Shown in pieces: positions 24,201 to 64,000 of a stretch of 64,000 nt of DNA. The notes beneath the pieces were generated by a model. That model saw nothing but the letters and a program-made list of their open reading frames with translations. It ran no database searches and had not been told where the DNA came from. The translations under genes were made by a program, and so were the position numbers. Position 1 is the stretch's first letter; each line of letters starts with the position of its first letter. Source of the DNA: a virus; the IMG/VR virus record IMGVR_UViG_3300030390_001781, positions 5,356 through 69,355 of that record; one strand, given 5' to 3'.

Positions 24201-27200
24201 GAAAGAAAAAATACTTAGAAGAGTTTAATAAAATTTCTTTAAACTATGCTTATGATGAAAAAGGAAAAGTTAAAGTTATAGCTTTTAAAACTGATTTTAT
24301 TAATAAAAAATTTCCTAGTGATTTTACTAAAAATCAAGTAGAAGGTTTTAACAAAAAAATAAAATCTATAGAGCAAGAGAAAAAAACAATAATTGACACT
24401 TTAAATAAAACAAAATTAACCAAAGCTTTTTCTAAAGACCATGTAGGAAATAAAAAACTTTATACAACTTTAGATAAATTAATAACTGCTTTTACTATTA
24501 ACGATAGAATAAATAGGTTAGCTATTAATGACATTGTTTCAGAACCAATAGCATATAGATTAGTAAAAGGAAAGTATAATAAAAAGAAAGGTAAAACAGT
24601 TTACACAGTAGATTCTTCTAACGTTATTAAGCGTAATAGTGGTTTTGATTCATTAGGAACTAAAGTTAATTTAAGTCATCAAAACACAAATAAAACTGTT
24701 AAGACTATTGTGTTTGAAATGAAAGATGACCAAGGAGAAGATATTTCCAATTCATTTTTATTTAGAGGAAGTCAAATGACTAAAGAAATACAAAAACAAC
24801 TAGGAGAAAGAAAGCTAAATAAAATTGGAGATAACTCTAAAGATGGTGAATACATGATAACTGAAGATGGTAGAAACATTTATCATAAAAACTCTTCTAT
24901 AAACTCTATGGAAAATGAAGAGGGTGAAAACAATCTTATTGCAATGGCAAAAGGTAGTATGGGTGAAAACTACAAAGAAAGTAGATTTTACAAAATGTAT
25001 GAAATGCTTCAAATGTTAGAAGAAGAGTATGGAGATGAATATCACATTCAAGTTATTGATGTAGAGTCAACTAAAGGTTCTAAGTTATACGATACACCTT
25101 CATCTATTGATAATTTATATAAAAACATAAAAGATAAAAATTGGAAAGCAATAGATAAATCTAGTTACATCTATGACAGTGAAAACTTTTACATACCATT
25201 TGATGAAAATAAAAAACTTTCAAAGAAAGAGTTAGCATTTCAAGAAGCAAGATTTGCTACACAGCTTGTAAAAATATTAACAAACTTTACTAATTCTGAT
25301 ATTGCTAAAGAAAACAGTCAAGAGTTAGAACAATTAATGGTTGAATTGCTAGAAGAGCAAATTGGATTAAATGAAAATTCTAATAATTACAAAGACTCTG
25401 TGTTAGGAAATGTTTTATTTCAAACAAATTCTATACTAATAGGTTTAAAAGATTCTATTGACCAATTGCAAGACCCTGATACAATTCAGATGCTTGACGA
25501 AATGATTGCATACAATAAATCAGAAGGTAAAAAACTAGATAAGGCAAGAAAAACAATTAAAAGACTTTCAGAAATTGAAGAAGGTTTAAGTAAGGAACAG
25601 CAAGAAGCTTTAACAAAAGCTGAAGATATTGTTAATAATAAAAAAACAATTAACAAAATTGATCACCCTGCTATGTTGCAACAGCTTAAACAAGTTATTA
25701 TCTCTAAGATAAAATCTAAAGGTGTTGATTTAAGACTTCCAGGTGCTTATTTAAAAATGGTTCCTGATATTGATGGCAGATTAAAAAGTGAAAGTTTAGG
25801 TGATAATGAAAATGAAATATTACTTCCTTGGAGTATGTTTGGAAAAACAAAAGAACAAGCTGAGAAGTTCTTAAAAGAACAAAATGAAAAAGGAGGTGTC
25901 TTTGTTCCTGGTGTTAGAGTTCCTGCGTCAGATGCAATCTCTACGCTTAATGCAAGAGTTGTAGGGTTTATAGATGATGCAAATATGGCTGTTCTTCCAC
26001 ATGGTTTTACAGTAAAATCTGATGCTGACCACGATGGAGATAAAGTGTTTATTTACAGAATGGATTTACAAACTAAAGAAGGTAAGACTGTTATAAAAGA
26101 AAATTCTAAAAAGAATAAGATTTATAATTTGATGAATGAATTAATGCAGACTGATGATTATAAAAAAAGAATTAAAGATGGTAGTATTAATCTTGATGTT
26201 TTTGAAAAGCAAGTAAAAGACATTAATGATGAATTAAAAGATTCAGGTCGAAAAGGTTTAAGAGAAGATTTTAATTTCGGAAGTGCTACTGAAATGAATG
26301 AAACAGATGCTCGTTTATCTTTTGGTGAAAAAGCTGTTGGTATTTTAGCTGTTGCTGGTAAGCTTAATGCTGCTTTGTATCAAGCAGGAGTTGTCTTTAA
26401 AGGTAATCCAAAGGTTACTATAATGGGTCAAGAAATAGATTTAGAAGAGATAGATGCTCCTAAGACTGCAAATGATATTGCAATGCTTTTACAAGCTGCT
26501 TTAGATATATCTAAGAAACCTGTTTTATTAACTGCAGGTATTAATGCAAGTAATATTAATGTTGTTGTAGCAATGCTTATAAGTGGTATTAAATTAAAAA
26601 ATGTTATTAAGTTTATTAACCAAGACAATATTATAGATTTTTATACAACTGATAACACGTCAGATAATTCTTACAACAAAAAGAAAAATAAAGACCAATT
26701 AAAAATTAATTTAAAAGACCGAATAATAAACGAAAAAAATACAGCTATACAAAAAGAGTTAGAAACTTTAATGTATTTTACAGAGTTAGGTAATGAGCTA
26801 AATACAGTAACTTCTATTGCTCAGTTAGATGGTAAAATACCTAATGACGGTTATTTATTAAGAGATGTTAAATCTGCTTTTAATTTAATTAAGAATAAAA
26901 ACAGTAAAACTAAATTAAGATATAATGAGTTAGCTAATAAACCTTTAAATCAACATTATGAAAAATTAGTAGATTTTGCTTTAGATACTTTATCTCATCA
27001 TTTTATTACAGAAAACGAAAGTTATTATAAAGAAATTGAACAAGTAAAGAAAAGTAGAGAAGCTTATGGCGTTAAAGAGTTTGATATGAAAACTGAAAAA
27101 CGTAGAATAGATGATATGTTTGCTTTAATGGTATCTCAAAAATTAGATATTGAAGAAGAAATATCTGCTTTAGAATATGGTGATTCTGATTCTCTACTAA

Positions 27201-28345
27201 TAAGGTTAGCCTCTATGGTTGCTTTTTCTCAAAAAGCTAAATTTCAAAATGTTAGTAATACAGAAAACGTATTACAAAAAAAATACATTAAAGCTCAAAA
27301 AGAATTAGTTCCTCAAGATAATACTTCTCAAAATAATGAACAGTATGAATTAGAAATGGCGTTCCGTAGTCTATCTATGAAAATAGAAGGTTTTAATGAA
27401 ACTTTTGGTAACATGATTTCTAATGAAGTTAAACAAGCAACATGGAATGAAAAAGGACAAACAACAGAAGGTATAACTAAAAAACAATATGTTAAGCAAT
27501 ATATTAAATCATTACAAGACCAAAACTTAGTAATACCTGTAACAGAAAATATGTTACCAAAATTAATAGACGTTGCTATTAAGTATGACGAATATTTAGA
27601 TAGTAATATGTCTGAAATGAATCGTTCTAAAGAAAGTGCTAAAAATAAGTTTTTACAATTACTGCAATTAACAACAGAAACAAATCCTTTAACAGACGTA
27701 GAAGAAAGGATATTAACTGGTAAAAATGATATACGTTATTTAACTACTACAGAAAAAAGATTGGCTAAAGAAGATTTTTTAAAACTTCCTTTAGAAACAC
27801 AAAAAGACTTTAAGGCTTATCAAATGTTAAAGTTTGGTTTAAGTAATAAACTAGGAAGTTTAATCAGTATTATGCCTAGTGATTTTACGGTTGAGTATTT
27901 AAAATATATTTCAAATATTAAATCAGACGGTGTTAAAGAAAATAAAATTTATGAATTAAATGATTTAGAAATTGCTGAAAATTATAATGATTTATATTAC
28001 CCATTAAAAAAGTATAAGAGTGCAAATAAATTAGTTGATAATGAAGGTCAGATATTAAAAGACATTAAAGATGTTAAAGAAAATAATGTTGTTTTCTTAA
28101 AAACTGAGTTAACTAAAAATAATGTAAAAACGTATCAAACAGTAAAAGGTAAACCTGGTGTTAGATTTGAAATTGAAGGAGATTCGAACATTTATGAATT
28201 TCAACAATATAATAAAGATGAAAGCATTGTATCAATAATAGACAAAGATTCAATGGCGAAAAAAACAAATGAATATACTACTTTTAGAACAGAGTCTTTA
28301 TCAGAAGCTAGTGATGTTGCTGATAATTTAGACGAAGCTTGTTAA
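18263..28345 (+). CDS. giant virion RNA polymerase polyprotein (two-barrel RNAP, zincin domain, hydrophobic N-terminal region)
   Basis: RVP...MAVLP...SDADHDGDKVF (DxDGD at 26027-26041); HEFAH at 21953-21967; Gly-rich hydrophobic helices in the first ~450 aa; position matches crAss-like vRNAP. Confidence 0.85.
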   Translation: MGETNNSNNATSENQREINNEEYADAFKSLDENFNIPDIAQSFSDTQEQIDPFNAGIAFQEESPTFTEFDQGVLGDFISGVYNTLIVGSVEGMINLAPTISNAITETEVANNWIDSVSKFAYEFELGYSDDFYKPIEKFDDINATHFTAGLGNGIGFVIGIGKFAKAGQLLSKSGRLIRKGEKLLEGTSKAFKSGAKARNSIDDIVKAIFKKGKTSKLKKVPKFKEGLKGKKRVDMLNKLKKLEQTGESSLKNSARFGSFMGGTTMMYGMVQEEALAAGLDRTDAARFALTVAGVVSLTEGAALEAVGAIPALAAKRQIVKAAAQKSFKGMAGKPPSKILEAFLPKYSNALKAADIAKGVMVESFQEFTQTYIEEGAKQFYDVVFADKDAKVGKGKFGQEVFDLDADSFGDFFLDGEDATRTFTNSVFAGILGGIIGGGMAGLQLNAIGGERNIGNESAFNLIADDVINKKTKNRDKINQALTKAYNDDNISKQDIDATNEILDEMEAFVQKNNLVKQVEDPIAQYQMFNLFKAGKVVESKTKTKEQLEKELQGELDKTIEERLIDQENKNSLFDLISSAININYEEIYRTEKAETKDPDEFNDKVLAYQYLAEQVDGNVFTTEEEVLAELDKIYSSEFKKQYQTIEKTVKEQLEKQEERGDFLNEVEEEEFNEFKDNGNISKKRINYLAQKLKNKKDFNEYEQKMYDAKKSEVEQARDFFIKEEKEAKAEQEKAKEENKFKPNEGERKKEEKGEKEENKEKPFNEEEYKKYLETLTEEQLKEEFDNVVTKSDSNVKEKLDSINKEDTRRIKNKKPTGKTKEEIKAEKEEAKKKAKEKTIKDKINDILNIGKSKKSGKNYSKKSAKDVGQDLFSAVLGAMKSAPNYNSEEAKTLFKEYAKTVHPDKNNQTSEREALATAILSAMTEARDKGRVDVLKKLKELFDTEIAKLPKAEKETKKKEEQKKKEREAKEQEEEQENKEKEEREEDKLIEAIKKESNFISKSYEKIKIIEKDYENSFFFKRYNKEDVKSLEEEIKEANERIAYYKEEQKKRAGTSTTTDTTTEQKTGEDVEEETTPTKKKKIDLSKLTSVDKDQLTPPDDPTNTNPSNNPNGNTQTDEEIEKETLATQKANKNEKTADKVIPKINNLPSGDINLEQRKNITSEINDSQKIIDNNELFENIKEHFKKMFPKIPVQLVDKLFNKYGVEILGQVSKDGITISEEAYQNTLVHEFAHVYIDLIADKEIVKNALEWIKTTKFFQLAKQAYPSYTTEKQAMEALVQAMSENSIPKLEGMFSNSQLTKWGSIAKKLWRTIKRMFTGVNKRNYIDFLSDSLIYNSKPIMVETNYLENNALEQRKAIGVDVANFNNNFLSRKTKQFVINSLLNEDKNITAVKVLSNLRIALISIMNDNEQTFPTVALNAKYNELIDSDNKVIGYDVKYNELSDSKKISVLLEQTVYESGVSYLEHMAYVTEQLVKLPTEVKEDFIDEQINRDQNKEEDTGKVEKENIKGDKKMTSSIASLIGTLVDSDGKKIHEDLVFSYIAKVAQNSVTNQEVVTKIKNDSKKGNNIANALLSTLMAAKQYDNSQKTNVYQTLLIEVLSQQSVVYKSINIKTESTGDNKVEVYKTSASRIKANRTREFKKRILDPRFISQIITRVGKGGMNIQEIINERIKTGKGYFLHNQLGTFDVQQVDAIGELLFGLNEGEFDAVHYVNWLIKSKQNETRNKTTGDLIIRARELNTINNISDPKAKKQAASNFFMVEILNTFGEQQQKKKNKANKSKNTSDVIMSGGAVSSLMSFAAFQYDGDIHNANMFINSSGNSISTTRLGSYLNRAFTNIAKKTEEAKKKNNKQITVEGLDGRNKKVFLFRNNPVFAKLMNDGIVNQFIDDAVNYVGEKATEHGQQNEIDLLITQLAYFATNQNRDSYDQKLMINDRSHSNWLSVNRLDANQANTVLLQQRNVDQSLLNENYKLLDKAGKKKYLEEFNKISLNYAYDEKGKVKVIAFKTDFINKKFPSDFTKNQVEGFNKKIKSIEQEKKTIIDTLNKTKLTKAFSKDHVGNKKLYTTLDKLITAFTINDRINRLAINDIVSEPIAYRLVKGKYNKKKGKTVYTVDSSNVIKRNSGFDSLGTKVNLSHQNTNKTVKTIVFEMKDDQGEDISNSFLFRGSQMTKEIQKQLGERKLNKIGDNSKDGEYMITEDGRNIYHKNSSINSMENEEGENNLIAMAKGSMGENYKESRFYKMYEMLQMLEEEYGDEYHIQVIDVESTKGSKLYDTPSSIDNLYKNIKDKNWKAIDKSSYIYDSENFYIPFDENKKLSKKELAFQEARFATQLVKILTNFTNSDIAKENSQELEQLMVELLEEQIGLNENSNNYKDSVLGNVLFQTNSILIGLKDSIDQLQDPDTIQMLDEMIAYNKSEGKKLDKARKTIKRLSEIEEGLSKEQQEALTKAEDIVNNKKTINKIDHPAMLQQLKQVIISKIKSKGVDLRLPGAYLKMVPDIDGRLKSESLGDNENEILLPWSMFGKTKEQAEKFLKEQNEKGGVFVPGVRVPASDAISTLNARVVGFIDDANMAVLPHGFTVKSDADHDGDKVFIYRMDLQTKEGKTVIKENSKKNKIYNLMNELMQTDDYKKRIKDGSINLDVFEKQVKDINDELKDSGRKGLREDFNFGSATEMNETDARLSFGEKAVGILAVAGKLNAALYQAGVVFKGNPKVTIMGQEIDLEEIDAPKTANDIAMLLQAALDISKKPVLLTAGINASNINVVVAMLISGIKLKNVIKFINQDNIIDFYTTDNTSDNSYNKKKNKDQLKINLKDRIINEKNTAIQKELETLMYFTELGNELNTVTSIAQLDGKIPNDGYLLRDVKSAFNLIKNKNSKTKLRYNELANKPLNQHYEKLVDFALDTLSHHFITENESYYKEIEQVKKSREAYGVKEFDMKTEKRRIDDMFALMVSQKLDIEEEISALEYGDSDSLLIRLASMVAFSQKAKFQNVSNTENVLQKKYIKAQKELVPQDNTSQNNEQYELEMAFRSLSMKIEGFNETFGNMISNEVKQATWNEKGQTTEGITKKQYVKQYIKSLQDQNLVIPVTENMLPKLIDVAIKYDEYLDSNMSEMNRSKESAKNKFLQLLQLTTETNPLTDVEERILTGKNDIRYLTTTEKRLAKEDFLKLPLETQKDFKAYQMLKFGLSNKLGSLISIMPSDFTVEYLKYISNIKSDGVKENKIYELNDLEIAENYNDLYYPLKKYKSANKLVDNEGQILKDIKDVKENNVVFLKTELTKNNVKTYQTVKGKPGVRFEIEGDSNIYEFQQYNKDESIVSIIDKDSMAKKTNEYTTFRTESLSEASDVADNLDEAC

Positions 28346-44766: not shown

Positions 44767-45385
44767 TATGTGTTTTTGCTTGTACCTCATTAACAAACTG
44801 TTCCAGGTTTCTAACTTTAAATTTGATTTTTCTGAGTTTTGCACTTTTATCGGTTATTAAAAATCGAGTTGGCACAAAGTACTTTTTAAATAAGCTTGGT
44901 AATTTAACGAGATTAACAAATACTGCTTCTCGTTGAAAAAGCCAATTCATTTTTACTTTAGTGTACCTAGTCATGTTATTTTGGTCAAAATCAGGTTTAA
45001 CTTCAAAGACAGTAATTACATCAATGCCTCTAATTGTTCCTATAAACATAGTTTGTGATTGACCTTTCATCAACTTATCCTTAGTGTTTAATGTTTCTAC
45101 AAAAACACCTAAAGCTTTTTGTGTCCAATGGACTACAAAATCAGGAGTATAAACCAATCCTTTTTGAATTGTTTCCTCTCCTTTGGTTGTTTTTAATTTT
45201 GTTTTTAATTGCTCTTGTTTTACAAATGACTTTGTAACTGCATCAGACAACTCGTAAGTGTACGGTTCGTATAAAACATTACTTACATAGCCAGCATTGT
45301 AAAGGTCTACTAAAAACCAATAAAAAAACCTTTCTTCTTTCGACTGAAAATCATTAGTATTAACTCTTGGAAATAAATCGTTCAT
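44759..45385 (-). CDS. PD-(D/E)XK endonuclease (DUF1064 / resolvase-like)
   Basis: FQSKEE, YEP, YTPDF, FEVK catalytic pattern. Confidence 0.7.
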   Translation of the reverse strand: MNDLFPRVNTNDFQSKEERFFYWFLVDLYNAGYVSNVLYEPYTYELSDAVTKSFVKQEQLKTKLKTTKGEETIQKGLVYTPDFVVHWTQKALGVFVETLNTKDKLMKGQSQTMFIGTIRGIDVITVFEVKPDFDQNNMTRYTKVKMNWLFQREAVFVNLVKLPSLFKKYFVPTRFLITDKSAKLRKIKFKVRNLEQFVNEVQAKTHND

Positions 45386-45393
45386 AATAAAAA

Positions 45394-45424
45394 TCAAAGA
45401 GCAAAGGGAAAACCAATGCTCTTT
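45394..45424 (-). promoter_or_regulatory. motif stem-loop upstream of PD-(D/E)XK nuclease
   Basis: + tcAAAGAGCAaagggaaaaccaaTGCTCTTT. Confidence 0.6.
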
Positions 45425-45430
45425 ATAAAT

Positions 45431-45814
45431 TTAATGGTTTGCAATAACTTTTTTCATAACCTCACTAAATCTTTCTTCATATTCTTCAGTACCGTACATA
45501 TTGTTTATGTCATCAAATAACTTCTTTAAAAAGAATAAATTATATAACATATCTTCTCCATGTATAGGTTCTAAGTTTATAGTTAAAACTGTAAAACAAT
45601 CATCGTTATAAATACAATCCCAACTAGAAACTATATAATTAATAGATTTAAATAACACAATAAATTCTTCATGTATTACGTCTTCAAATTCTTCTTTTAA
45701 TACTTCAAAAGAAACTTTAAATTTTATTTCTTTGCTATTAATACCAAAGTTATTAGGTAGTTTAATTTTCTTAAACTCCTCTATTAGCTTTCCACGCTTC
45801 GTAAATGTTAACAT
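45431..45814 (-). CDS. hypothetical protein
   Basis: 127 aa ORF in the - strand operon. Confidence 0.5.
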   Translation of the reverse strand: MLTFTKRGKLIEEFKKIKLPNNFGINSKEIKFKVSFEVLKEEFEDVIHEEFIVLFKSINYIVSSWDCIYNDDCFTVLTINLEPIHGEDMLYNLFFLKKLFDDINNMYGTEEYEERFSEVMKKVIANH

Positions 45815-49582: not shown

Positions 49583-49603
49583 AATAAATAATGAATTAAA
49601 TAA

Positions 49604-49624
49604 CCAAGCCACAAAGGGAAAACC
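49604..49624 (-). promoter_or_regulatory. motif copy upstream of dnaB
   Basis: + ccaagccacaaagggaaaacc. Confidence 0.65.
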
Positions 49625-49627
49625 AAA

Positions 49628-49792
49628 CTAATGTTCGGTTTCCTTTATGTCTTTACAATTACTTTCAACTGATTTTGAATTTTTCTCACAGTTTTTAATT
49701 TTTACAATTGATACAACTGATATTCCTATAGTTGTTATTGCTATTGTAAAAAGTAGTAGAAATAAATTTCTTCTAAATTTAATCAATTCCAT
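49628..49792 (-). CDS. small membrane protein (54 aa; not in ORF track)
   Basis: MELIKFRRNLFLLLFTIAITTIGISVVSIVKIKNCEK...; overlaps the ThiF stop. Confidence 0.45.
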   Translation of the reverse strand: MELIKFRRNLFLLLFTIAITTIGISVVSIVKIKNCEKNSKSVESNCKDIKETEH

Positions 49793-53075: not shown

Positions 53076-53090
53076 AGTTTTAAATTTTAA

Positions 53091-53133
53091 TTATCAAGCC
53101 ACAATGGGATATACCCACTGTAGCTTTTGATAA
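53091..53133 (-). promoter_or_regulatory. motif stem-loop upstream of the PRTRC operon
   Basis: + ttatcaagccacaatggg-atata-cccactgtagcttttgataa. Confidence 0.75.
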
Positions 53134-54030
53134 TTAAGCGTAAACTAATTTAGAAATTTCACTAAATGCTTTGTTGTCTAATTTTTGACCTGAACCAATC
53201 ATTTTACTTTCCATTAAATCTTTATTTCCAGGTAAATCTCTATTAGTATAAGAGGTTACTCCTGAAAATAATCCCCATAAAGTTTGACCTTTTTGAGAAG
53301 ATTCTTCAGCAATACGAAGAGTTAAATTCTTTGCTTTGTTTATAGAATTTGTAGAATACTTTTCTCTCGCTTCTTCGCTAGTCATTTCTACATCAACACC
53401 TACTAAGCTTTTGATTAAGCGCTTAATATCGTTAGGTTTAGATTCTATATCATTCATTCTTGTAAAGGTTTCGTAAAGGCTTAATTCTGACTCTTTAAAG
53501 TCATCAATACCAAACATAATAGTGTCTATTTTTTCACGCATAGTTTTAGTATGTCTTACTTTATGAGCTAAATCTCTATAAGCTTTATGAAAAATATTAC
53601 TACAGCTAATAGTTTTGTTAGTCATTCCTAATCCTACTCCTGAACTACCATCATGACTATTTGTTATAGTTATGTATTTATCAATTTGATCGTTGTTAAG
53701 ACCAATATTCTTGATAGAGCCGCTATCAATTTGCATAAATACTTTACGACCATCTTGTAAAGCACCTCCTTTTACAATATCTCCACCTAATTTTGTGGCA
53801 ATTTCGTGAGTTAATTCTGCTAAATCCCAATTCTGAAATATTTCATAACTGTCTTTACAAGTCATAAACTCTTTGTCAATATCTGACCTACGAATAGATA
53901 AATAATTTGATTCAATCCCTTCTCTAGTGAAAAGATTTTCTTTTTTGACTTCCCAAAAAAGATTGTGTTGTTCTAACAAGTCCATTACCATTTGTCCTTT
54001 GTTTTCAACTTCGTTAATTTGATTTTCCAT
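53134..54030 (-). CDS. DUF932 family protein (phage/plasmid-like, TIGR03299)
   Basis: YEIFQN, GALQDGRKVF, TNSHDGS, CSN, RHT, TLWGLFSGVTSY. Confidence 0.88.
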   Translation of the reverse strand: MENQINEVENKGQMVMDLLEQHNLFWEVKKENLFTREGIESNYLSIRRSDIDKEFMTCKDSYEIFQNWDLAELTHEIATKLGGDIVKGGALQDGRKVFMQIDSGSIKNIGLNNDQIDKYITITNSHDGSSGVGLGMTNKTISCSNIFHKAYRDLAHKVRHTKTMREKIDTIMFGIDDFKESELSLYETFTRMNDIESKPNDIKRLIKSLVGVDVEMTSEEAREKYSTNSINKAKNLTLRIAEESSQKGQTLWGLFSGVTSYTNRDLPGNKDLMESKMIGSGQKLDNKAFSEISKLVYA

Positions 54031-54050
54031 AATAAATTAAATTTTAAATA

Positions 54051-54082
54051 ACCAAAACACAAGGGGAAACAAGTGTTTTGGT
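54051..54082 (-). promoter_or_regulatory. motif stem-loop upstream of DUF932
   Basis: + ACCAAAACACaaggggaaacaaGTGTTTTGGT. Confidence 0.7.
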
Positions 54083-54090
54083 AAAAAAAA

Positions 54091-54270
54091 CTAAATGATT
54101 TTTAAAATTAAATCCCTAATTAAAGATGAAACATGAATATTATTATCATTACAATAATCTTTAAGTTTTTTTGATTCAGACTTAGTTAAATAAGTAAGTG
54201 TTCTTTTACTTTTTTGTTCTTCTTCATCTATTTTTTGAAAACCTTTTAAACCTTTTTTAGTAAATCCCAT
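54091..54270 (-). CDS. ribbon-helix-helix-like DNA-binding protein (59 aa; not in ORF track)
   Basis: ...KRTLTYLTKSESKKLKDYCNDNNIHVSSLIRDLILKII* fits strand-helix-helix RHH pattern. Confidence 0.6.
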   Translation of the reverse strand: MGFTKKGLKGFQKIDEEEQKSKRTLTYLTKSESKKLKDYCNDNNIHVSSLIRDLILKII

Positions 54271-55981: not shown

Positions 55982-56004
55982 AATTTATTTTTTAAAGTTA
56001 AACA

Positions 56005-56036
56005 TCAAGGCACAACGGGTAATCCCATTGTGCCTT
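56005..56036 (-). promoter_or_regulatory. motif stem-loop
   Basis: + tcaaggcacaacggg-taat-cccattgtgcctt. Confidence 0.75.
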
Positions 56037-56110
56037 AACTGAACTTTAAAAAACTACTAATGCTTAACTAGTAATGCCTTAAATTCTCCATTAGCTTGGA
56101 GAGTTTTATT

Positions 56111-57081: not shown

Positions 57082-57148
57082 AATAAATAGTTTTAAATTC
57101 AAAACACAAAGGGAAAAAGGCAGTCTTTAGCATAAGAGGTGATAAAAT

Positions 57149-57182: not shown

Positions 57183-57203
57183 TACTATTTACTATGGTTA
57201 AAA

Positions 57204-58139: not shown

Positions 58140-58154
58140 AGTAAATAGTTTAAA

Positions 58155-58192
58155 ATCAAAGCACAAAGGGTAATAATCCTTTGCACTTTGAT
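58155..58192 (-). promoter_or_regulatory. motif stem-loop
   Basis: + atcaaagcacaaagggtaataatcctttgcactttgat. Confidence 0.75.
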
Positions 58193-58211
58193 ACAATCCA
58201 CAATTAAACAA

Positions 58212-59489
58212 TTAAATGTTGTAGCTATTTACCTTCTTTGCGTAATTAATAAGCAAGTTTATTGCCTCTAATTGAAATTCAGGTGTACAATCTCTGACAT
58301 CATATTCTAAATGAATATATTCTTCAATGATTGTATTTACTACATCATGTAAACCTCTTTCAAGTCCTTTTTCTGACAATACTATTTGATTATCCTTGTG
58401 ATTAGCATAACCTAATATTCTTGAATTAGAAAAATTACCTACAGCAATATCAAATTTGTTAGGCAATTTACATTCAGCTAAGAAATTTTCAGCCTCATGT
58501 ATAGTATTCATTTGAAGTTGACTAGGTTTAGATACAACTCTGTACTGAATACCTCTATCTTTATCAAATCTTAAATCTGCTAACTTTTCATTACTAGTTA
58601 ACTTAGAACTAAGAAAAGAATAAAGACTTTCTGGAAGAAAAGTATATCCTGTTACTTCGTTTACACTTAACAAAGATATTAAACCTGTTGGTTGTACATT
58701 AATCTCGTTACAAACTTCTATAAACTCTTTTGAAGGGTTAACTCCATAAGGTCTTTCAAATTCGTACTCTAAACTGCTAGAGATAAGATTAGTAAGAATA
58801 TTTTTAATAATATTTTTGTCTTTACACGTTAATATTATTTTCCATATTTCTCTAGTTACTTCCCAATTATAAACACAAACTCTTGACTCGTTTATACTAA
58901 CCTTTGGTATGTCATAGTTATATACAGATTCTTTGTTGGTTTCGTAACATTTGATTCCTTTTCTGTAAATAACAGTACTACCTTGTTTTTCATAAATCTT
59001 ACCATGTTCGTTTTCATAAATAACATGGTCTTCATCAGCAAAATACAAACTAAAGTCTTTAGTAACCATGTCTATAAGTTCATCAGTCAAACTAATATAA
59101 ATATGAGTTTTACCTTTAACTCCTTTGATTTTAGTAGTGCAATTTAACTCTGCATTACCTTCGTCTAAAGCATTAGAATAAAACTCTCTAATAGCTTGCC
59201 ATAGCTTCCATTCTTTACCCATTTTAGTAGTTATAGAAGTAGCTTCATTGTTAATGTGAATTACATTAAAGACTTGATCACTAAATGTTTCTTCTTTAGT
59301 CGATACAGATATTTCTTTCTCGCCTGAAAAAATTCTTACTGTGTGATTGTTTCTTAATAAATACGCTAAAGCATACTTATTGCCCGTTCCGAACTGTCCG
59401 ATAGTTTCATCGCCAGTCTTAGTAGATGCACCTACAAGAGTAAAAGCCTTGTAGTTAATCTCGTTGTCATTAGAAATTCTTAAATACAT
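58212..59489 (-). CDS. GHKL (HSP90/MORC-like) ATPase domain protein
   Basis: GASTK...IGQFGTGNKYA (G2 box) and AIREFYSNALDE (N box); C-terminal TIIEEYIH. Confidence 0.7.
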   Translation of the reverse strand: MYLRISNDNEINYKAFTLVGASTKTGDETIGQFGTGNKYALAYLLRNNHTVRIFSGEKEISVSTKEETFSDQVFNVIHINNEATSITTKMGKEWKLWQAIREFYSNALDEGNAELNCTTKIKGVKGKTHIYISLTDELIDMVTKDFSLYFADEDHVIYENEHGKIYEKQGSTVIYRKGIKCYETNKESVYNYDIPKVSINESRVCVYNWEVTREIWKIILTCKDKNIIKNILTNLISSSLEYEFERPYGVNPSKEFIEVCNEINVQPTGLISLLSVNEVTGYTFLPESLYSFLSSKLTSNEKLADLRFDKDRGIQYRVVSKPSQLQMNTIHEAENFLAECKLPNKFDIAVGNFSNSRILGYANHKDNQIVLSEKGLERGLHDVVNTIIEEYIHLEYDVRDCTPEFQLEAINLLINYAKKVNSYNI

Positions 59490-59635
59490 AATAAATAAAT
59501 TTAAAGTTCAAAACACAAAGGGAAACAAAAAGGCTAAATGTTAATTTTAGACTAAAAAATGCAGTCCATAACACCGTAGGTTATAATGCAAGTTAGTGGG
59601 TTATTTGACAAAAAAAAAGTAATAATTTTAAGTAA

Positions 59636-59675
59636 ATTCAAAGTACAAAGGGTGTTAACTCTTTGTACTTTGAAT
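59636..59675 (-). promoter_or_regulatory. motif stem-loop
   Basis: + attcaaagtacaaagggt-gtta-actctttgtactttgaat. Confidence 0.75.
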
Positions 59676-59676
59676 A

Positions 59677-59898
59677 TTAATAATCTAAGTTTTGATACCA
59701 TTGATATTCAATGTCTTCTTGTTCTTGACGCATTTGTTCTTCAAAGAAAGCATTTTCTATGTTACCTAATTTTTTCTTTTTAGGTTTACTTGAAGGTATT
59801 TGTGCATATTTTGCTAAATACTTAATTAAACGTATTAGTTGTTTTCTAGAACAACCGTCTAAGTTGAATTTCTGTTCATCAATTTGTAAAATCTCCAT
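59677..59898 (-). CDS. hypothetical early protein
   Basis: 73 aa, flanked by motif copies on both sides. Confidence 0.65.
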   Translation of the reverse strand: MEILQIDEQKFNLDGCSRKQLIRLIKYLAKYAQIPSSKPKKKKLGNIENAFFEEQMRQEQEDIEYQWYQNLDY

Positions 59899-59912
59899 AA
59901 TAATATAGTTTT

Positions 59913-59946
59913 AAAGTTCATAGCACATTGGGTGTGCTATAAACTT
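59913..59946 (-). promoter_or_regulatory. motif stem-loop
   Basis: + aaagttcatagcaca-ttggg-tgtgctataaactt. Confidence 0.8.
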
Positions 59947-59950
59947 AATA

Positions 59951-60241
59951 TTATTTTAACTCTTTTTTAGTTAGTTCCCATGAGTTAAATAATACAAATA
60001 ATGGTATAGTTCTTTTTAAGATTAATATTTCATCATCTGTTGGTTTGTTAGATTCATCTATATTGCCGTCATTACCTAATGGAGAATAATAGAATTTAAT
60101 TACCCTTTTGTTGATAATTGCAATACCGAAAAAGTGAGGTATTTTATAGATTTTATCATGAAGATGTTTATCAAGAATAAACATTTCACAACCGTCTGCT
60201 TTGATTTCTAACTTTTGCGTTTTGTAAATTTCAATTTGCAT
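59951..60241 (-). CDS. hypothetical early protein
   Basis: 96 aa, flanked by motif copies. Confidence 0.65.
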   Translation of the reverse strand: MQIEIYKTQKLEIKADGCEMFILDKHLHDKIYKIPHFFGIAIINKRVIKFYYSPLGNDGNIDESNKPTDDEILILKRTIPLFVLFNSWELTKKELK

Positions 60242-60254
60242 AATATTTTAGTTT

Positions 60255-60294
60255 AAAGTTCAAAGCACAACGGGTGTTGTGCCTTGAATACTTT
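60255..60294 (-). promoter_or_regulatory. motif stem-loop
   Basis: + aaagttcaaagcacaac-gggt-gttgtgccttgaatacttt. Confidence 0.8.
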
Positions 60295-60296
60295 TA

Positions 60297-61040
60297 TTAC
60301 ATTGCTGATTTGATAATCGCAGAGCCAATTTTACCTTGACTTCTAGGTGCTAGTTTTACCATAACTGTTGGGTGTTCTTGGTAAACTTCTGTAAGTGCTG
60401 TTCTGAATCTAGAAACTAAGTCTTCTATTTTAAGACGGTTTTCTAAAGTCCATACTTTCACTTCTACGCATTCATTAGCAAGATAATCTTTGCCTTTGAC
60501 TTCAAATACTAAACCTTCTTGGTCTGTATAGTCTTCTAACTTCATGTATTTGTTTAGAATTAAATCAAATGGAGAAGTCCATCTTGAACTATACTTTTCA
60601 GCAATTACTTTAAGAGTTTTAATGTAATCTCTTACAGTACTATAAGAAGCGTATGCTACTTGATTACCTCTAAGTAAAATAGAGATATTATCAGGTAATC
60701 TTACGAAGCTATCATCGCCTACAGTATCGCAAATCTTGTATAAGACTTGTTTATTATCATTGATTTGAGAATAAGAATGATACTGTATTTTTACAAGTGC
60801 GTCTGCGTCTTTTGGTACAAACCAATTTACGGCAGTTCTACTTGGCTCAGAAGCCAGTTCTTTGAAGTCATCTGCATAATCATTAAACATAGCGTTGATT
60901 ATATCTTCGGCTACATTTATATGCGTTGACGTTGTAGGAACTGTAGCATTAGCTTCTACATTTGTTTTTACGCTGTTGTTTTCAGCGTTTGCTTCAGCAA
61001 CTCCTTGAGTTACTTTTGCATTTTCAGTAATATTTGTCAT
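60297..61040 (-). CDS. hypothetical early protein
   Basis: Start taken at MTNITEN; flanked by motif copies. Confidence 0.65.
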   Translation of the reverse strand: MTNITENAKVTQGVAEANAENNSVKTNVEANATVPTTSTHINVAEDIINAMFNDYADDFKELASEPSRTAVNWFVPKDADALVKIQYHSYSQINDNKQVLYKICDTVGDDSFVRLPDNISILLRGNQVAYASYSTVRDYIKTLKVIAEKYSSRWTSPFDLILNKYMKLEDYTDQEGLVFEVKGKDYLANECVEVKVWTLENRLKIEDLVSRFRTALTEVYQEHPTVMVKLAPRSQGKIGSAIIKSAM

Positions 61041-61041
61041 A

Positions 61042-61070
61042 TCAAGGCACAAAGGGTGAATGTGCCTTGA
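61042..61070 (-). promoter_or_regulatory. motif stem-loop abutting a start codon
   Basis: + TCAAGGCACAaagggtgaaTGTGCCTTGA. Confidence 0.75.
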
Positions 61071-61116
61071 AAAGAAAACGAAATATCTGTACCAAATAAC
61101 AAAGGGAAATAAAGTC

Positions 61117-61200
61117 TTAGCAAAGATTAACATACATACTAAATGCTAATAAGATGGCTGTTAGTACAATGATTAATGCAAATCTGTAAATGTTATACAT
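61117..61200 (-). CDS. tiny single-TM peptide (27 aa)
   Basis: MYNIYRFALIIVLTAILLAFSMYVNLC*; ATG 20 nt below a motif copy. Confidence 0.5.
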   Translation of the reverse strand: MYNIYRFALIIVLTAILLAFSMYVNLC

Positions 61201-61215
61201 AACTATAAAGTTTAT

Positions 61216-61251
61216 AAAGTTCAAGACACATTGGGTGTGTCTTGATACTTT
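61216..61251 (-). promoter_or_regulatory. motif stem-loop
   Basis: + aaagtTCAAGACACA-ttggg-TGTGTCTTGAtacttt. Confidence 0.85.
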
Positions 61252-61472
61252 TAGCATACTTGTATTTTTACTTGTTGATACGTTAGTGTATTGCAATCTA
61301 TCCAATCGTGATAGTCATTTTTACTGTTGTCTATTACAGTTACGTTGTTTTTTGTATCAACAATTAATGTTAAATCGAAGTAGATTTCTGTTACGTCTTC
61401 TGCATAACTTGCTACTTTTGGTTTAACTTCTGTTTTAGGGTTTCTAAGTACTGCTTTGTTTACAAATGTCAT
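61251..61472 (-). CDS. hypothetical early protein
   Basis: 73 aa, flanked by motif copies. Confidence 0.65.
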   Translation of the reverse strand: MTFVNKAVLRNPKTEVKPKVASYAEDVTEIYFDLTLIVDTKNNVTVIDNSKNDYHDWIDCNTLTYQQVKIQVC

Positions 61473-61485
61473 AATAAATATATTT

Positions 61486-61529
61486 AAAGTTCAAGACGCA
61501 TTGGGAAACCCTAACACGCCTTATACTTT
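61486..61529 (-). promoter_or_regulatory. motif stem-loop
   Basis: + aaagttcaagacgcattggg-aaa-ccctaacacgccttatacttt. Confidence 0.7.
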
Positions 61530-61695
61530 ATGATTTAAGTGTAAACCATATAAATGCACCTGTTGACACACAAAGTGCTGTTACACAAGCTAAGAATTGA
61601 TAATGATTTAGATTGAAACGAGATATTGTCATTAATGTGTAAATACTAATTAATGCAAGTATAAGCGTTACAATTTTTTTGATAAAAATCAGCAT
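61528..61695 (-). CDS. small 2-TM membrane protein
   Basis: MLIFIKKIVTLILALISIYTLM...; flanked by motif copies. Confidence 0.6.
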   Translation of the reverse strand: MLIFIKKIVTLILALISIYTLMTISRFNLNHYQFLACVTALCVSTGAFIWFTLKS

Positions 61696-61710
61696 AATAT
61701 ATAATTTTAT

Positions 61711-61759
61711 AAAGTTCAAGACACAACGGGAAAAATAACAACTCGTTATGTCTTTAACT
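61711..61759 (-). promoter_or_regulatory. motif stem-loop
   Basis: + aaagttcaagacacaacggg-aaaaataacaa-ctcgttatgtctttaact. Confidence 0.75.
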
Positions 61760-61761
61760 AT

Positions 61762-61938
61762 TTATTTAGATGAAGTTAATTGAGTGAACGCCAGTTCACG
61801 ATCGCATTGTTCTGCAAATTGAGCAATTACTAAATCATCAATTTCTTTTTGTAGTTGTGGTTTACATGAAGTACAACCAAAGTTTGGCAAGTCTTTATCT
61901 TCATTTGGAAGATAGTTTGCTGTTTTACAATCACACAT
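61762..61938 (-). CDS. small Cys-rich early protein (58 aa; not in ORF track)
   Basis: MCDCKTANYLPNEDKDLPNFGCTSCKPQLQKEIDDLVIAQFAEQCDRELAFTQLTSSK*; ATG 18 nt below a motif copy. Confidence 0.65.
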   Translation of the reverse strand: MCDCKTANYLPNEDKDLPNFGCTSCKPQLQKEIDDLVIAQFAEQCDRELAFTQLTSSK

Positions 61939-61951
61939 AATTAATAGTTTA

Positions 61952-61982
61952 AAAGTTCAAGCCACATTGGGCTTGATACTTT
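61952..61982 (-). promoter_or_regulatory. motif stem-loop
   Basis: + aaagtTCAAGCC-acattg-GGCTTGAtacttt. Confidence 0.85.
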
Positions 61983-61984
61983 AA

Positions 61985-62263
61985 TTAGAAAGGCATATCA
62001 TCAGGAATTGGTTGACTATTTTCTGTTGATAGTTCTTGATAATACTCTTCATCAAATTGAAATGATTGTGCTGAATAAATTTCTTTGTCGATATTATTAT
62101 CGGCACAATACTTATCATATCGCTGAAGTAACGCTTTGTGTTCGCATATCATTTGTAAACATTCTGCGATACATTCTTCTTCAGCACATATTTTATTTTC
62201 AATATGAAAATCTTTTTCCATTTGCTCAATTGTTGTTTGAGCATACATTGTTAATTTTAGCAT
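61985..62263 (-). CDS. acidic early protein ending PDDMPF
   Basis: 92 aa, flanked by motif copies. Confidence 0.65.
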   Translation of the reverse strand: MLKLTMYAQTTIEQMEKDFHIENKICAEEECIAECLQMICEHKALLQRYDKYCADNNIDKEIYSAQSFQFDEEYYQELSTENSQPIPDDMPF

Positions 62264-62277
62264 GACTATAAGTTTAT

Positions 62278-62307
62278 AAGTTCAAGCCACATTGGGCTTG
62301 ATACTTT
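62278..62307 (-). promoter_or_regulatory. motif stem-loop (identical 30-mer to the 61953 copy)
   Basis: + aagttcaagccacattgggcttgatacttt. Confidence 0.85.
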
Positions 62308-62504
62308 TAGAATGGTAAATCTTCATCATCAATTTCGATTTCATCAATCGTAAGATTGTCATAATGATAGTCGTGATTAGATTCACAACAAACGAAAGTT
62401 TGTTCTTCCTCGAACATTTCAGGTGGTCCATATTGCACAAGACCGTCTGAGTCTAAATATTCAACGAAACCTAAATTCATAGCAATTCTTTCTCTGTTAG
62501 TCAT
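62307..62504 (-). CDS. acidic early protein ending DEDLPF
   Basis: 65 aa, flanked by motif copies. Confidence 0.65.
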   Translation of the reverse strand: MTNRERIAMNLGFVEYLDSDGLVQYGPPEMFEEEQTFVCCESNHDYHYDNLTIDEIEIDDEDLPF

Positions 62505-62518
62505 AATATAAAGTTTAT

Positions 62519-62556
62519 AAGTTCAATACACATTGGGAAATGTGTATTGATACTTT
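62519..62556 (-). promoter_or_regulatory. motif stem-loop
   Basis: + aagtTCAATACACATT-ggga-AATGTGTATTGAtacttt. Confidence 0.85.
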
Positions 62557-62557
62557 G

Positions 62558-62800
62558 TTAGAATGGATTGTTATAATCGTAAACCATTCTACACTTGCAT
62601 TTATGCGAGAAATGATACATTTCATTTTGTGCTATGCGTAAATTTTCTTGAAGATTTACACTTGTTTCTATACAAGTGTTATCATCATTATGAAACGCAT
62701 AACGTAATGTTGCTACTTCTGCAATAGACATAGCAAGTTCTGTTATTGATTCTTTAGTTAACCAATTAGCATTTTTCGCATTGAAATCTTTGTTAGTCAT
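62558..62800 (-). CDS. early protein ending YNNPF
   Basis: Start taken at MTNKDF, 19 nt below a motif copy. Confidence 0.6.
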   Translation of the reverse strand: MTNKDFNAKNANWLTKESITELAMSIAEVATLRYAFHNDDNTCIETSVNLQENLRIAQNEMYHFSHKCKCRMVYDYNNPF

Positions 62801-62814
62801 AATATATAAGTTAT

Positions 62815-62848
62815 AAAGTTCAATGCACATTGGGTGCATTGATACTTT
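62815..62848 (-). promoter_or_regulatory. motif stem-loop
   Basis: + aaagtTCAATGCAC-attgg-GTGCATTGAtacttt. Confidence 0.85.
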
Positions 62849-62849
62849 A

Positions 62850-63149
62850 TTACAACATACCTAATTGAATGTAATGATGAAGACAATTGAAATCTTTGAT
62901 ACCTTCATAACTATCATAGTTAAGGTCAATAACAAGTTTTACAAATCTGTCTAAATCATTACAATCGTAGCCACAAATTTCAGCTACGTCTACAAGTATG
63001 AAGATATTATCAAGATGTTCTTGATAATTGTCAAATGATAACGATACAACTTTGCTAGATATTAGCAATGGTTTTATACGTAAGTTCATATCTAAGCTTT
63101 TAGACTGAACTGCCTCAACAAATTCCTCGTAAGGATAATTACCTTTCAT
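62850..63149 (-). CDS. hypothetical early protein
   Basis: 99 aa, flanked by motif copies. Confidence 0.65.
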   Translation of the reverse strand: MKGNYPYEEFVEAVQSKSLDMNLRIKPLLISSKVVSLSFDNYQEHLDNIFILVDVAEICGYDCNDLDRFVKLVIDLNYDSYEGIKDFNCLHHYIQLGML

Positions 63150-63161
63150 AATAAATGATTT

Positions 63162-63200
63162 AAAGTTCAGAGCACATTGGGAAATGTACTCTGAAACTTT
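63162..63200 (-). promoter_or_regulatory. motif stem-loop
   Basis: + aaagttcagagcacatt-ggga-aatgtactctgaaacttt. Confidence 0.85.
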
Positions 63201-63448
63201 TAGAATGGTAAGTCATCAAATTCATCGGCTACTAAAGTAGTTTCTAATCTATGTTTACCATGATTAGGTTTAATGTTTGATAACTTAAAGTTAAATTTGT
63301 TAGGTTCATGAGAATACTCTAGAAGCAACATACTTAACGATTGGTTTAACCAATCTATCTTACCTGTACAATCATCACATTCCATACATGGATATGTAAC
63401 ATTATCATCAGGACAATACTGTCCATGTTTACAATCAATAAAACACAT
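63200..63448 (-). CDS. Cys-rich early protein ending FDDLPF
   Basis: Start taken at MCFIDCKHGQYC...CMECDDC. Confidence 0.6.
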   Translation of the reverse strand: MCFIDCKHGQYCPDDNVTYPCMECDDCTGKIDWLNQSLSMLLLEYSHEPNKFNFKLSNIKPNHGKHRLETTLVADEFDDLPF

Positions 63449-63470
63449 AATATATAAGTTTAAGTTAATA

Positions 63471-63500
63471 TTCAATGCACATAGGGAAATGTACATTGAA
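63471..63500 (-). promoter_or_regulatory. motif stem-loop
   Basis: + ttcaatgcacat-agggaa-atgtacattgaa. Confidence 0.8.
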
Positions 63501-63506
63501 CTTTGT

Positions 63507-63674
63507 TTAGTCAAGGTCATTGTCTATAAGCCATCTTTTAAATGATACTTGACAATTAACAGGACAATAAGAACAATATTCAAGATATTGCTTTATTAAT
63601 TCTTCTTGATAAGATTTACCGTCTTCATTTAAAGACGATAAATGTTTTTCACAATAAATACTTGCGTTACTCAT
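63507..63674 (-). CDS. small Cys-containing early protein (55 aa; not in ORF track)
   Basis: MSNASIYCEKHLSSLNEDGKSYQEELIKQYLEYCSYCPVNCQVSFKRWLIDNDLD*; ATG 24 nt below a motif copy. Confidence 0.6.
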   Translation of the reverse strand: MSNASIYCEKHLSSLNEDGKSYQEELIKQYLEYCSYCPVNCQVSFKRWLIDNDLD

Positions 63675-63697
63675 ATCTATAAAGTTTAAAGTTAATA

Positions 63698-63728
63698 TTC
63701 AAAGCACATTGGGTTACCAATTACTTGA
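63698..63728 (-). promoter_or_regulatory. motif copy with imperfect stem-loop
   Basis: + ttcaaagcacattgg-gtta-ccaattacttga. Confidence 0.7.
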
Positions 63729-64000
63729 CATTGTCAAATAAAATGACTAACTTCTTCGCTCTACTACGTTACTAAACGTTTTTTTGTCTTACACAAACGA
63801 TACAACCAAACATTGGAAATGTATATCGTACAAACGTAGGAAGATACATAGCTCGCTAGGAAGACATTGTGAAACGCTATCGAACATAGAGAATTGCTGA
63901 ATGTCAATCAAACCACATTGGGAAACAATAACAACAGAGAACTTAAGGGGGGGTATAAAGAAAAATTATTTTTTTAATTTTTATTTTATTAACAGACCTC

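Follow-up and report, generated by a model that had tools for sequence, protein, structure and literature searches.

The closest described counterparts of the element considered here are the promoter early stem-loops (PeSLs) of the T4-type phages RB49/phi1, T4/PST, and KVP40/nt-1 (Arbiol et al. 2010, PMC2839356; Comeau et al. 2014, PMC4122927). As these reports describe it, a PeSL combines a promoter with an overlapping stem-loop, begins at the stop codon of the upstream gene, stands before small genes, and forms a seam for indels, replacements, and mini-circles. The present analysis concerns a similar repeated element in the window, which is the whole stretch of 64,000 nucleotides (nt) analysed, bases 5356-69355 of the 69,355-bp virus record IMGVR_UViG_3300030390_001781 found in marine metagenomes. 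The element contains a 26-base motif, whose 22-24 copies lie only on the minus strand at 45.4-63.9 kb and mostly form the 3' half of a hairpin. With a rough probability of 0.55, a composite promoter/hairpin element stands before each small early gene and each replication operon of this phage.

Several features are shared with the PeSLs of those two papers. Both elements are short composite motifs repeated by the dozen before tiny genes of no known function; both span the interval from the upstream stop codon to the next start codon; in both, a stem-loop with G-T stem pairs overlaps the promoter, which is putative here; and in both, the motifs delimit the indels, replacements, and shuffling seen among close relatives. 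However, PeSL promoters are described as matching the sigma-70 consensus and being active with the host RNA polymerase (RNAP), whereas the core found here lacks a host -35/-10 consensus and occurs in one phage clade. In nearly all copies the core also serves as the hairpin's 3' arm, the carrier is a crAss-like phage rather than a T4-type myovirus, and the promoter and terminator roles are predicted from sequence. A sequence-only reading of the window had proposed an undescribed punctuation system. This claim yields to the PeSLs as published; what would be new is a promoter that is not host-like, the phage group, and the use of the core as the hairpin 3' arm.

The virion RNAP of phage N4 (PMC4496689) was also brought in by that reading. 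An injected giant polymerase, predicted here as well, and early promoters with an inverted repeat of conserved and covarying stem bases are common to both cases. However, the N4 promoters in that account are three, lie at one genome end, and need a template-strand hairpin whose stem is of 5-7 bp and whose loop is of 3 nt; no such template-strand hairpin was found here, where more than 20 copies are spread along a 19-kb arm. The stems are of 9-17 bp, the wobble pairs place the fold on the coding strand, and the copies without a hairpin keep the signal. The N4 enzyme is T7-like, whereas the candidate here is predicted to be a two-barrel, gp66-like protein. The strand of the fold and the hairpin-less copies do not support the N4 analogy. 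In the Thermus phage P23-45 (10.1101/2022.12.01.518664), a phage-specific motif upstream of the first genes has been assigned to a virion two-barrel RNAP, and the motif is reported to be absent in relatives without the matching enzyme. That motif is AT-rich and was mapped by transcription start site sequencing and chromatin immunoprecipitation, whereas the present one is known from sequence alone; the accessible part of the P23-45 source mentions no hairpin or cassette shuffling.

For crAss-like phages, no such array or early promoter consensus was found described in the literature outside subscription journals. The RNase III sites of T7 and the attC sites of integrons are folded repeats between single genes, and attC rides at the 3' end of its cassette. 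The hairpin described here also lies between single genes and moves at a 3' end, as attC does. However, neither system accounts for the conserved 3' arm of hairpin-less copies: stems of 9-17 bp, as expected of RNase III-type sites, are present, yet the 3' arm is conserved without the hairpin, and no integrase (the IntI tyrosine recombinase of integrons) is encoded here.

Motif sequence and placement

The motif reads TTWCCCWWTGTGnnTTGA(ACTTTAAA). Searching the window with the pattern CCCWWTGTGNNTTGA and up to two mismatches gave 29 matches against 4.06 expected, and none of 100 shuffles reached 29. All 13 exact and eight of the nine one-mismatch matches to the strict pattern lie on the minus strand at 49.6-63.9 kb; the sole plus-strand match in this set belongs to a palindromic copy, as its mirror arm. 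With the less strict expression CC[N]WTG[YR..]TTG[AG], 22 minus-strand copies were returned, from 63921 to 49617. The covariance model R1, built from 18 copies and run with filters off, matched at E<=1e-3 only within 45.4-63.7 kb; its plus-strand matches mirror palindromic copies, and none fell on the plus-strand arm (1-42 kb). The aligned consensus of 98 distinct copies, drawn from the window together with 21 related contigs, is TTW-CCC-WW-TGTG-nn-TTGA-A-C-TTTAAA. CCC, TG, and TTG are invariant (CCC, T53, G54, T60, and G61 in 98/98), whereas their 5' partners vary between C and T. Because the 3' arm is nearly invariant while its partners drift, and because it is kept in hairpin-less copies, it may be recognised by its sequence and not by pairing alone.

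The motif heads every small minus-arm gene and every operon start, and orphan copy 59651 is the one exception to the rule of a same-strand downstream gene. It is missing inside coupled operons, on the plus arm, and past the last gene of the minus arm, where another hairpin lies (about 41.82-41.85 kb). Between 63.7 and 59.9 kb, 14 ORFs (open reading frames) of 27-247 amino acids (aa) have one copy each, and every ORF forms a separate blastp family, which bears out the earlier description as a cassette-like array. As had also been read from the sequence, copies 62295 and 61970 are identical over 30 nt, and the ATG mostly follows TTGA at 16-24 nt: of the 143 distinct copies collected from window and relatives, 136 are followed by an ATG no more than 46 nt past TTGA, at 16-24 nt in 103 of them and at 17-19 nt in 79. 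Two other statements stood in part. The extent given, 59.5-63.9 kb, fits the array, but the motif continues, heading operons down to 45.4 kb; and 24 copies of a stem-loop element had been named, where the present count is 22-24, about four of them having no hairpin.

These placement rules and the tight ATG distance fit a promoter. In the minus arm, sigma-70-type sites are not enriched (113 vs 117.6 expected), and the motif does not have sigma-70 geometry, because 17-19 nt to the ATG leave no space for a -10 box and a leader. TAnnTTTG/TTTG is the promoter layout of Bacteroidetes hosts, and the motif does not fit it either. On the plus arm (1-41400), TAnnTTTG boxes are not enriched (42 sense vs 44 antisense), and among the listed plus-arm gene starts having an upstream gap of at least 25 nt, only 2 of 13 have one within 120 nt. 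A 21-nt form of the motif gave five singleton matches in 596 Gb of prokaryote genomes, and in IMG/VR the motif is confined to this clade.

A host RNAP promoter that needs a phage or host factor would be another explanation, in which the motif is bound by a sigma-like, activator, or repressor protein that has escaped recognition, with no part played by the virion enzyme. The full palindromes at 58169, 56018, 53107, and 59651 resemble dimer operators, the palindrome TTGACAATGTCAA is conserved at the array head, and many small early proteins have no known function. However, most copies consist only of a half-site and a short arm, the very first genes carry the motif before any phage factor could exist, and no bacterial genome is enriched for it. 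Six-frame searches of the genome found no sigma-70 region 2 and no T7-type RNAP (PF00940), the latter also giving no match in the control genomes, and 26 minus-arm proteins have no sigma or RNAP Pfam domain. A factor-dependent host promoter is considered rather unlikely.

Hairpin structure and strand

In most copies the core is preceded by (TAA)AAGT(A)TCAAnnCAC, which pairs with GTGnnTTGA. RNAfold gave a clear hairpin in 18 of the 22 window copies, with about four lacking one. The seven hairpins tested had z-scores of -4.9 to -7.5, compared with +0.47 for the hairpin-less copy 59521, and RNAalifold on 18 window copies gave a 9-bp stem with compensatory changes in five pairs. In the 98-copy alignment, which was fitted to the model and so leans towards structure, 96.7% of the cells are paired (25-47% in slid controls), and both sides have changed in 89 cells vs 20.8 after shuffling, with 0 of 500 shuffles as high. 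The stem-loops noticed in the sequence-only reading are real and covarying.

When the 5' arms were located by Watson-Crick pairing only, 34 copies had eight of nine pairs; the odd pair was G.T in 32, A.C in one, and another mismatch in one, an excess that is partly compositional since the constrained 3' arm is G/T-rich. Wobble-keeping transitions are tolerated, and transversions are not. Because the odd pairs are nearly all G.T, selection acts on the fold of the coding strand, whether in the RNA or in the non-template DNA. The G.T:A.C counts over all stems (72:1; 89:5) are partly forced by the composition of that arm and were set aside, and the comparison with transversion mismatches was relied on instead. 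The 9-bp arms are separated by loops of 5-27 nt. Of 97 hairpins, 40 have an outer AAAGT/ACTTT helix with its full 5 bp, and 26 of these contain a 1-nt bulge; stems that include the helix reach 14-17 bp.

The 5' arm is tied to the gene before it. Of the 93 hairpin copies with an ORF upstream, 55 have the first base of its stop codon 8-12 nt before the 9-bp stem, in agreement with the stop codon reported to abut the element. An ORF stops within 60 nt in 78/96 hairpin copies vs 23/45 others, a difference which is indicative only, since the classifiers misfile 6-bp or wobble-rich hairpins as hairpin-less. The hairpin-less window copies (63921, 59521, 57112, and 49617), like many more in relatives, retain the 3' half, ACTTTAAA, and the spacing. 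They have no gene ending just upstream, or they come directly after a separate hairpin with a GC stem and a T-run (57149-57182, one before 49617, and GGCT..AGCC plus T-run in several relatives). If these separate hairpins are terminators, the gene downstream has to be started from a signal in a span of about 40 nt, where the motif is the sole conserved sequence. Transcription is unlikely to start upstream of the motif hairpin, since the DNA there encodes the ends of unrelated genes.

The same observations bear on an explanation by RNA alone, in which long polycistronic RNAs would run from a few starts at the head and the hairpins would be processing or stability sites for an RNase III-like or other nuclease, as in T7. 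It would suit the selection of the coding-strand fold with G.U tolerated, the 14-17 bp stems with an AAAGU/ACUUU helix and a conserved 1-nt bulge (26/97), the single element between almost all gene pairs, and the movement of the hairpin with the gene before it, in the manner of a structure at a 3' end. However, hairpin-less copies keep the sequence and spacing of the 3' arm in a form unusable by a double-strand-specific nuclease. The invariant bases are locked in the stem of hairpin copies, which is hard to square with single-strand RNA recognition, and terminator-like hairpins sit directly before some copies. In addition, no Rfam family reached its gathering score in the whole window, and at E<=1 only one chance-level match and no ribozyme appeared in 56-64 kb. 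Punctuation at the RNA level alone seems rather improbable.

A structural promoter in the style of N4 would require that the repeat is extruded by supercoiling and that a DNA hairpin is recognised rather than the duplex sequence. The inverted repeats are long and stable, N4 promoters are reported likewise to mix conserved and freely covarying stem bases, and the phi14:2 enzyme gp66, as described, transcribes only single-stranded or denatured DNA in vitro. However, the N4 hairpin is described as lying on the template strand, its stem being of 5-7 bp and its loop of 3 nt, whereas the loops here are of 5-27 nt; a fold of the template strand would turn the odd pairs into C.A mismatches; and some 4 of the 22 copies in the window, all located at operon starts, are hairpin-free. 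Recognition of this kind is judged quite unlikely.

Cassette families among the relatives

Only six IMG/VR stretches contained the motif, three from relatives already in the set and three new ones, which bear arrays. A profile search with the 247-aa array protein gave no new IMG/VR relatives. Metagenomes yielded 30 motif-bearing stretches, of which 16 were taken: 15 with at least three copies on the motif strand, and L019, a copy of L011 that was unused further. The 14 dropped stretches were L013, L015, L017, L021, L024, L025, L027, L029, L034, L035, and L037-L040; 13 of them had two copies or fewer, which were taken as chance or unrelated matches. Duplicates (L003, L008-L010, L019, L026, and L038) were left out of the model search and the cassette counts. 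The covariance model scan suggested by the sequence-only reading showed that the related marine contigs keep the motif.

Cassette families were defined by clustering the first ORF behind each copy (blastp, E<=1e-4). The downstream order of the array is conserved (F1-F0-..-F5-orphan-F2-F3-F11-F9-F17), and the upstream part is variable. Five swaps of adjacent order were found: F15-F8/F8-F15, F6-F13/F13-F6, F10-F7/F7-F10, F4-F14/F14-F4, and F7-F12/F12-F7. The 92-aa cassette F23 is missing from relative L002 exactly between two copies identical over 30 nt (blastn), and a second singleton cassette, in L016, lies between a 26-nt identical pair. Gene gain, loss, and order changes thus fall at the elements, as had been anticipated, although intergenic DNA is little more than the element and breakpoints inside it are partly forced. 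Where upstream neighbours differ, homology starts at -30..+20 of the anchor in 77 of 124 binned pairs (129 compared); where the upstream neighbour is the same, it continues for more than 100 nt in 45 of 63 binned pairs (70 compared). The variable stem bases are identical in 109/160 pairs with the same upstream and a different downstream gene, in 56/164 pairs of the converse type, and in 950/5623 background pairs, although these pairs are not phylogenetically independent. Because the variable stem bases follow the upstream gene, the mobile unit is an ORF together with its 3' hairpin.

A dedicated attC-like recombination site, with cassette mobility as its chief role, would also make such a unit mobile. 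Both singleton cassettes lie between identical copies (26 and 30 nt), and identical flanking copies occur in 2/166 adjacent pairs vs 0/771 non-adjacent pairs. However, tyrosine and serine recombinases (PF00589 and PF00239) had no match in the complete genome, with positive controls, and on this the integron-like reading proposed earlier is not supported. The element also heads conserved, unshuffled operons; breakpoints must land in it, since there is little other intergenic DNA; and recombination genes of the phage itself, among them those of the PDDEXK nuclease and the AAA_24/Sak4-like protein, could use the roughly 25 nt of shared sequence. A site-specific system is highly improbable. Homologous recombination over the 25 or so shared nt is the simplest mechanism, because no tyrosine or serine recombinase is encoded.

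The candidate polymerase

The giant ORF (3360 aa) has only seven homologues among 5.8 billion proteins (37-57% identity, 3342-3840 aa), the most distant being P0008 at 37%. The segment SDADHDGD (RVPAS...SDADHDGD) is invariant in eight homologues of the giant ORF; DHDGD stands in place of the crAss-like DFDxD, which is literally absent. There was no sequence-level match in PDB, Pfam, or PHROGs. In a Foldseek search with an AlphaFold model of aa 2150-3000, the sole significant match was 6VR4_A, the virion RNA polymerase of phi14:2 (E 5.8e-4). VIA-align against this chain gave Z 16.6 and rmsd 4.1 over 365 aligned residues, compared with Z 6.9 for the next chain, and covered residues 1121-1864 of 6VR4_A, around the catalytic motif. 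The model thus predicts an RNA polymerase core of the gp66-family two-barrel type with a DxDxD motif, which agrees with the crAss-like assignment of the phage. The gene lies within the structural arm, between the portal/capsid genes and tail-like genes, and this location is the sole support for the predicted packaging and injection of the product. A zincin-like HEFAH is also present in the giant ORF.

A virion polymerase is plausibly the most economical reader of the motif, because the phi14:2 homologue transcribes early genes; the available phi14:2 account describes a rifampicin-resistant virion enzyme acting on the early, replication-module genes. The gp66 protein is also described there as active in vitro on single-stranded or denatured DNA only. 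A bolder proposal would build on this: in the motif, a crAss-type (gp66-like) virion RNAP would have its first promoter consensus, with a hairpin of dual role, whose RNA form ends the upstream message and whose DNA form exposes the template strand. The repeat would fold stably only on the non-template strand (G.T there is C.A on the template strand), and the template strand would stay single-stranded for an enzyme that in phi14:2 uses only single-stranded DNA in vitro. The proposal as a whole is regarded as unlikely.

Proposed function of the composite element

The preferred interpretation is a phage-specific promoter that overlaps a terminator-like hairpin. The conserved 3' half, TTWCCCWWTGTGnnTTGA plus ACTTTAAA, would be the promoter, read as DNA, with the start in or just past ACTTTAAA and an AT-rich leader of about 10-18 nt. 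The 5' half, (TAA)AAGT(A)TCAAnnCAC, would belong to the upstream gene and be complementary to the promoter core, so that an upstream transcript entering the element might fold into a 9-17 bp RNA hairpin. This hairpin may end the upstream message or guard its 3' end, and may shield the next promoter from upstream transcription. Each small early gene would then be its own transcription unit, and each replication/recombination operon would have one such start. The likeliest reader would be the injected giant polymerase, as a structural homologue of phi14:2 gp66. With about 25 nt near-identical in each copy, ordinary homologous recombination could insert, delete, and permute units of an ORF plus hairpin, and the cassette shuffling would be a by-product, as for the T4-type PeSLs. 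A fused terminator and virion-RNAP promoter, one of the options in the sequence-only reading, coincides with this interpretation, in which termination and the reader remain predictions.

Several points weigh against a promoter with a terminator-like hairpin read by the giant polymerase. The motif hairpins lack the GC stem plus U-tract of intrinsic terminators: ACTTTAAA follows the stem, ACUUUAAA comes in the place of the U-tract, and ACUUU pairs with the upstream AAAGU in 40/97. On the coding strand, a single motif hairpin was flagged by a terminator scan; sites of canonical appearance are the separate hairpins before hairpin-less copies. The leaning of the model-fitted pair counts and the compositional part of the G.T excess count in the same direction. 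The structural model is of low confidence (mean pLDDT 52.9, <50 around DHDGD), and its top match alone was used; the enzyme and the motif are linked solely by the lack of other candidates. In the available phi14:2 account, a common motif upstream of early transcripts was not found. The Flavobacterium phage FpV4 shows neither the motif nor any evident replacement for it: the best model match had E 0.036, and there was no repeat family and no shared upstream 8-mer. Four metatranscriptomes of the same samples gave only a few short low-depth contigs on 45000-63990, none of them in 59.6-64 kb, and are uninformative on expression.

How crAss-like phages aim an injected polymerase is the question on which this clade offers a sharply defined 26-nt candidate signal. 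With more than 20 natural variants per genome, with and without hairpin, it is directly testable with one recombinant protein and synthetic templates. The PeSL principle, in which promoter/hairpin repeats are recombination seams that shuffle small early genes, would reach a very different phage group and, probably, a non-host polymerase. A PeSL-type design in two phage groups would suggest a general solution, not a T4 peculiarity.

Genome context and listed features

The record is rated 100% complete by CheckV. The contig ends overlap by about 153 nt (window 63848-64000 vs genome 1-153) with a single G-run difference (AAAGGGGGG vs AAGGGGGGG), which would fit a circular assembly as well as a short terminal repeat; the record is labelled 'linear'. 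The plus arm (1-41.4 kb) encodes the portal, the major capsid protein, other virion proteins, and the 3360-aa ORF. The minus arm (42.1-64 kb) encodes DnaB, the PDDEXK nuclease, the AAA_24/Sak4-like protein, a PRTRC/E2/ThiF set, DUF932, and a radical-SAM SPL-like protein, with the run of tiny ORFs at its upstream end. The major capsid protein is 25-29% identical to those of crAss-like phages and FpV4, by which this marine phage is placed among the crAss-like phages, as had been proposed. FpV4, the nearest cultured phage checked, shares the two-arm architecture and has its own giant virion protein. GenBank phages contained no near relative of the array by DNA or of the giant-ORF core by protein; the GenBank matches of the 425-aa ATPase are unrelated YuA-like and other phages at about 25% identity. 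No tRNAs were found in the window. The elements and the giant ORF are listed in Table 1.

Table 1. Window coordinates of the motif-bearing elements and of the candidate polymerase gene
Feature	Position	Strand	Evidence
First motif copy, at the arm head, no hairpin, no credible ORF behind	63908..63922	-	Exact pattern match; no R1 match at E<=1
Element heading 55-aa ORF 63507..63674; palindrome TTGACAATGTCAA before it	63687..63744	-	R1 43.3 bits
Hairpin element, 82-aa ORF	63460..63515	-	R1 51.4 bits; fold -15.1 kcal/mol
Hairpin element, 99-aa ORF 62850..63149	63155..63210	-	R1 57.8 bits; z -7.34
Hairpin element, 80-aa ORF	62808..62858	-	R1 49.3 bits
Hairpin element, 65-aa ORF 62307..62504	62511..62566	-	R1 57.1 bits; z -6.41
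Hairpin element, 92-aa ORF 61985..62263 (cassette F23, missing in relative L002)	62270..62325	-	R1 44.8 bits; blastn indel
Hairpin element, 58-aa ORF 61762..61938; identical twin of the 62270..62325 copy over 30 nt	61945..62000	-	R1
Element with long loop containing a small extra hairpin and T-run, 55-aa ORF	61704..61772	-	R1 44.8 bits
Hairpin element with wobble pairs, 73-aa ORF 61251..61472	61479..61540	-	R1 41.7 bits
Hairpin element, 27-aa ORF	61209..61261	-	R1 52.0 bits; z -7.48
Hairpin element; ATG of the 247-aa ORF directly past TTGAT	61030..61086	-	R1 45.4 bits
Hairpin element, 96-aa ORF 59951..60241	60248..60303	-	R1 52.1 bits; z -6.90
Hairpin element, 73-aa ORF 59677..59898	59906..59958	-	R1 52.4 bits
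Orphan palindromic element, about 110 nt non-coding behind, layout kept in relatives	59626..59689	-	R1 40.8 bits
Hairpin-less copy, 425-aa GHKL-type ATPase gene 58212..59489	59496..59560	-	Exact match; R1 29.5 bits; z +0.47
Long palindromic element, operon head	58144..58207	-	R1 46.5 bits; z -6.82
Hairpin-less copy; terminator-like hairpin 57149-57182 just upstream	57087..57145	-	Pattern match, R1
Long palindromic element, operon head	55993..56054	-	R1 44.0 bits; z -7.43
Hairpin element, DUF932 gene 53134..54030	54040..54097	-	R1 46.5 bits; Pfam
Hairpin element, PRTRC/E2/ThiF operon	53082..53137	-	R1 40.5 bits; Pfam
Copy heading dnaB; own upstream hairpin and TTTT, no complementary 5' arm	49592..49671	-	One-mismatch match; R1 E 0.028; fold
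Weak degenerate copy, operon start	45382..45442	-	R1 27.7 bits, E 0.0011; two-mismatch match
Giant 3360-aa ORF, candidate virion RNA polymerase	18263..28345	+	SDADHDGD at aa 2587, HEFAH at aa 1231; Foldseek, VIA-align

The arm head (63715-63930, minus strand) contains about 200 nt without a credible ORF behind copy 63921, and two degenerate motif-like repeats occur in it (TTTCACAATGTC near 63870 and TTTCCAATGTTTGG near 63815). The palindrome before the first gene-proximal element recurs with its flank in L001, L006, L007, L011, and L018. Early non-coding regions exist in phi14:2 too, where they are reported to be strongly transcribed. Behind the orphan copy 59651, the interval 59522-59650 (minus strand) has about 110 ORF-free nt with a T9 run and small hairpins, followed by the hairpin-less copy of the ATPase gene. 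A slot with an element and no ORF between families F5 and F2 is also found in L001, L014, L022, L028, and L033. The ORF-free slot may encode a small non-coding RNA or act as a decoy start.

The PRTRC_E, prokaryotic E2 family D, and ThiF/E1-like genes share one motif-headed operon (49783-53075, minus strand; Pfam); a ubiquitin-like conjugation set is unusual in a phage. The replication arm also encodes a spore-photoproduct-lyase-like radical SAM protein (54526-55386, minus strand; PF20903, E 1.9e-24). A perfect inverted repeat, AAAGACGTTAA...TTAACGTCTTT, lies where the arms converge (41810-41850); it has no relation to the motif and probably works as a terminator in both directions. A C-terminal ...D(D/L/M)PF, placed just before an element, is shared by several unrelated tiny proteins (62307-62325, 63200-63217, and 61985-62000, minus strand, and L047 near 12760). 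We take these ends to resemble the C-terminal tail of single-stranded DNA-binding protein (SSB), and one FpV4 gene has a similar end, EDLPF.

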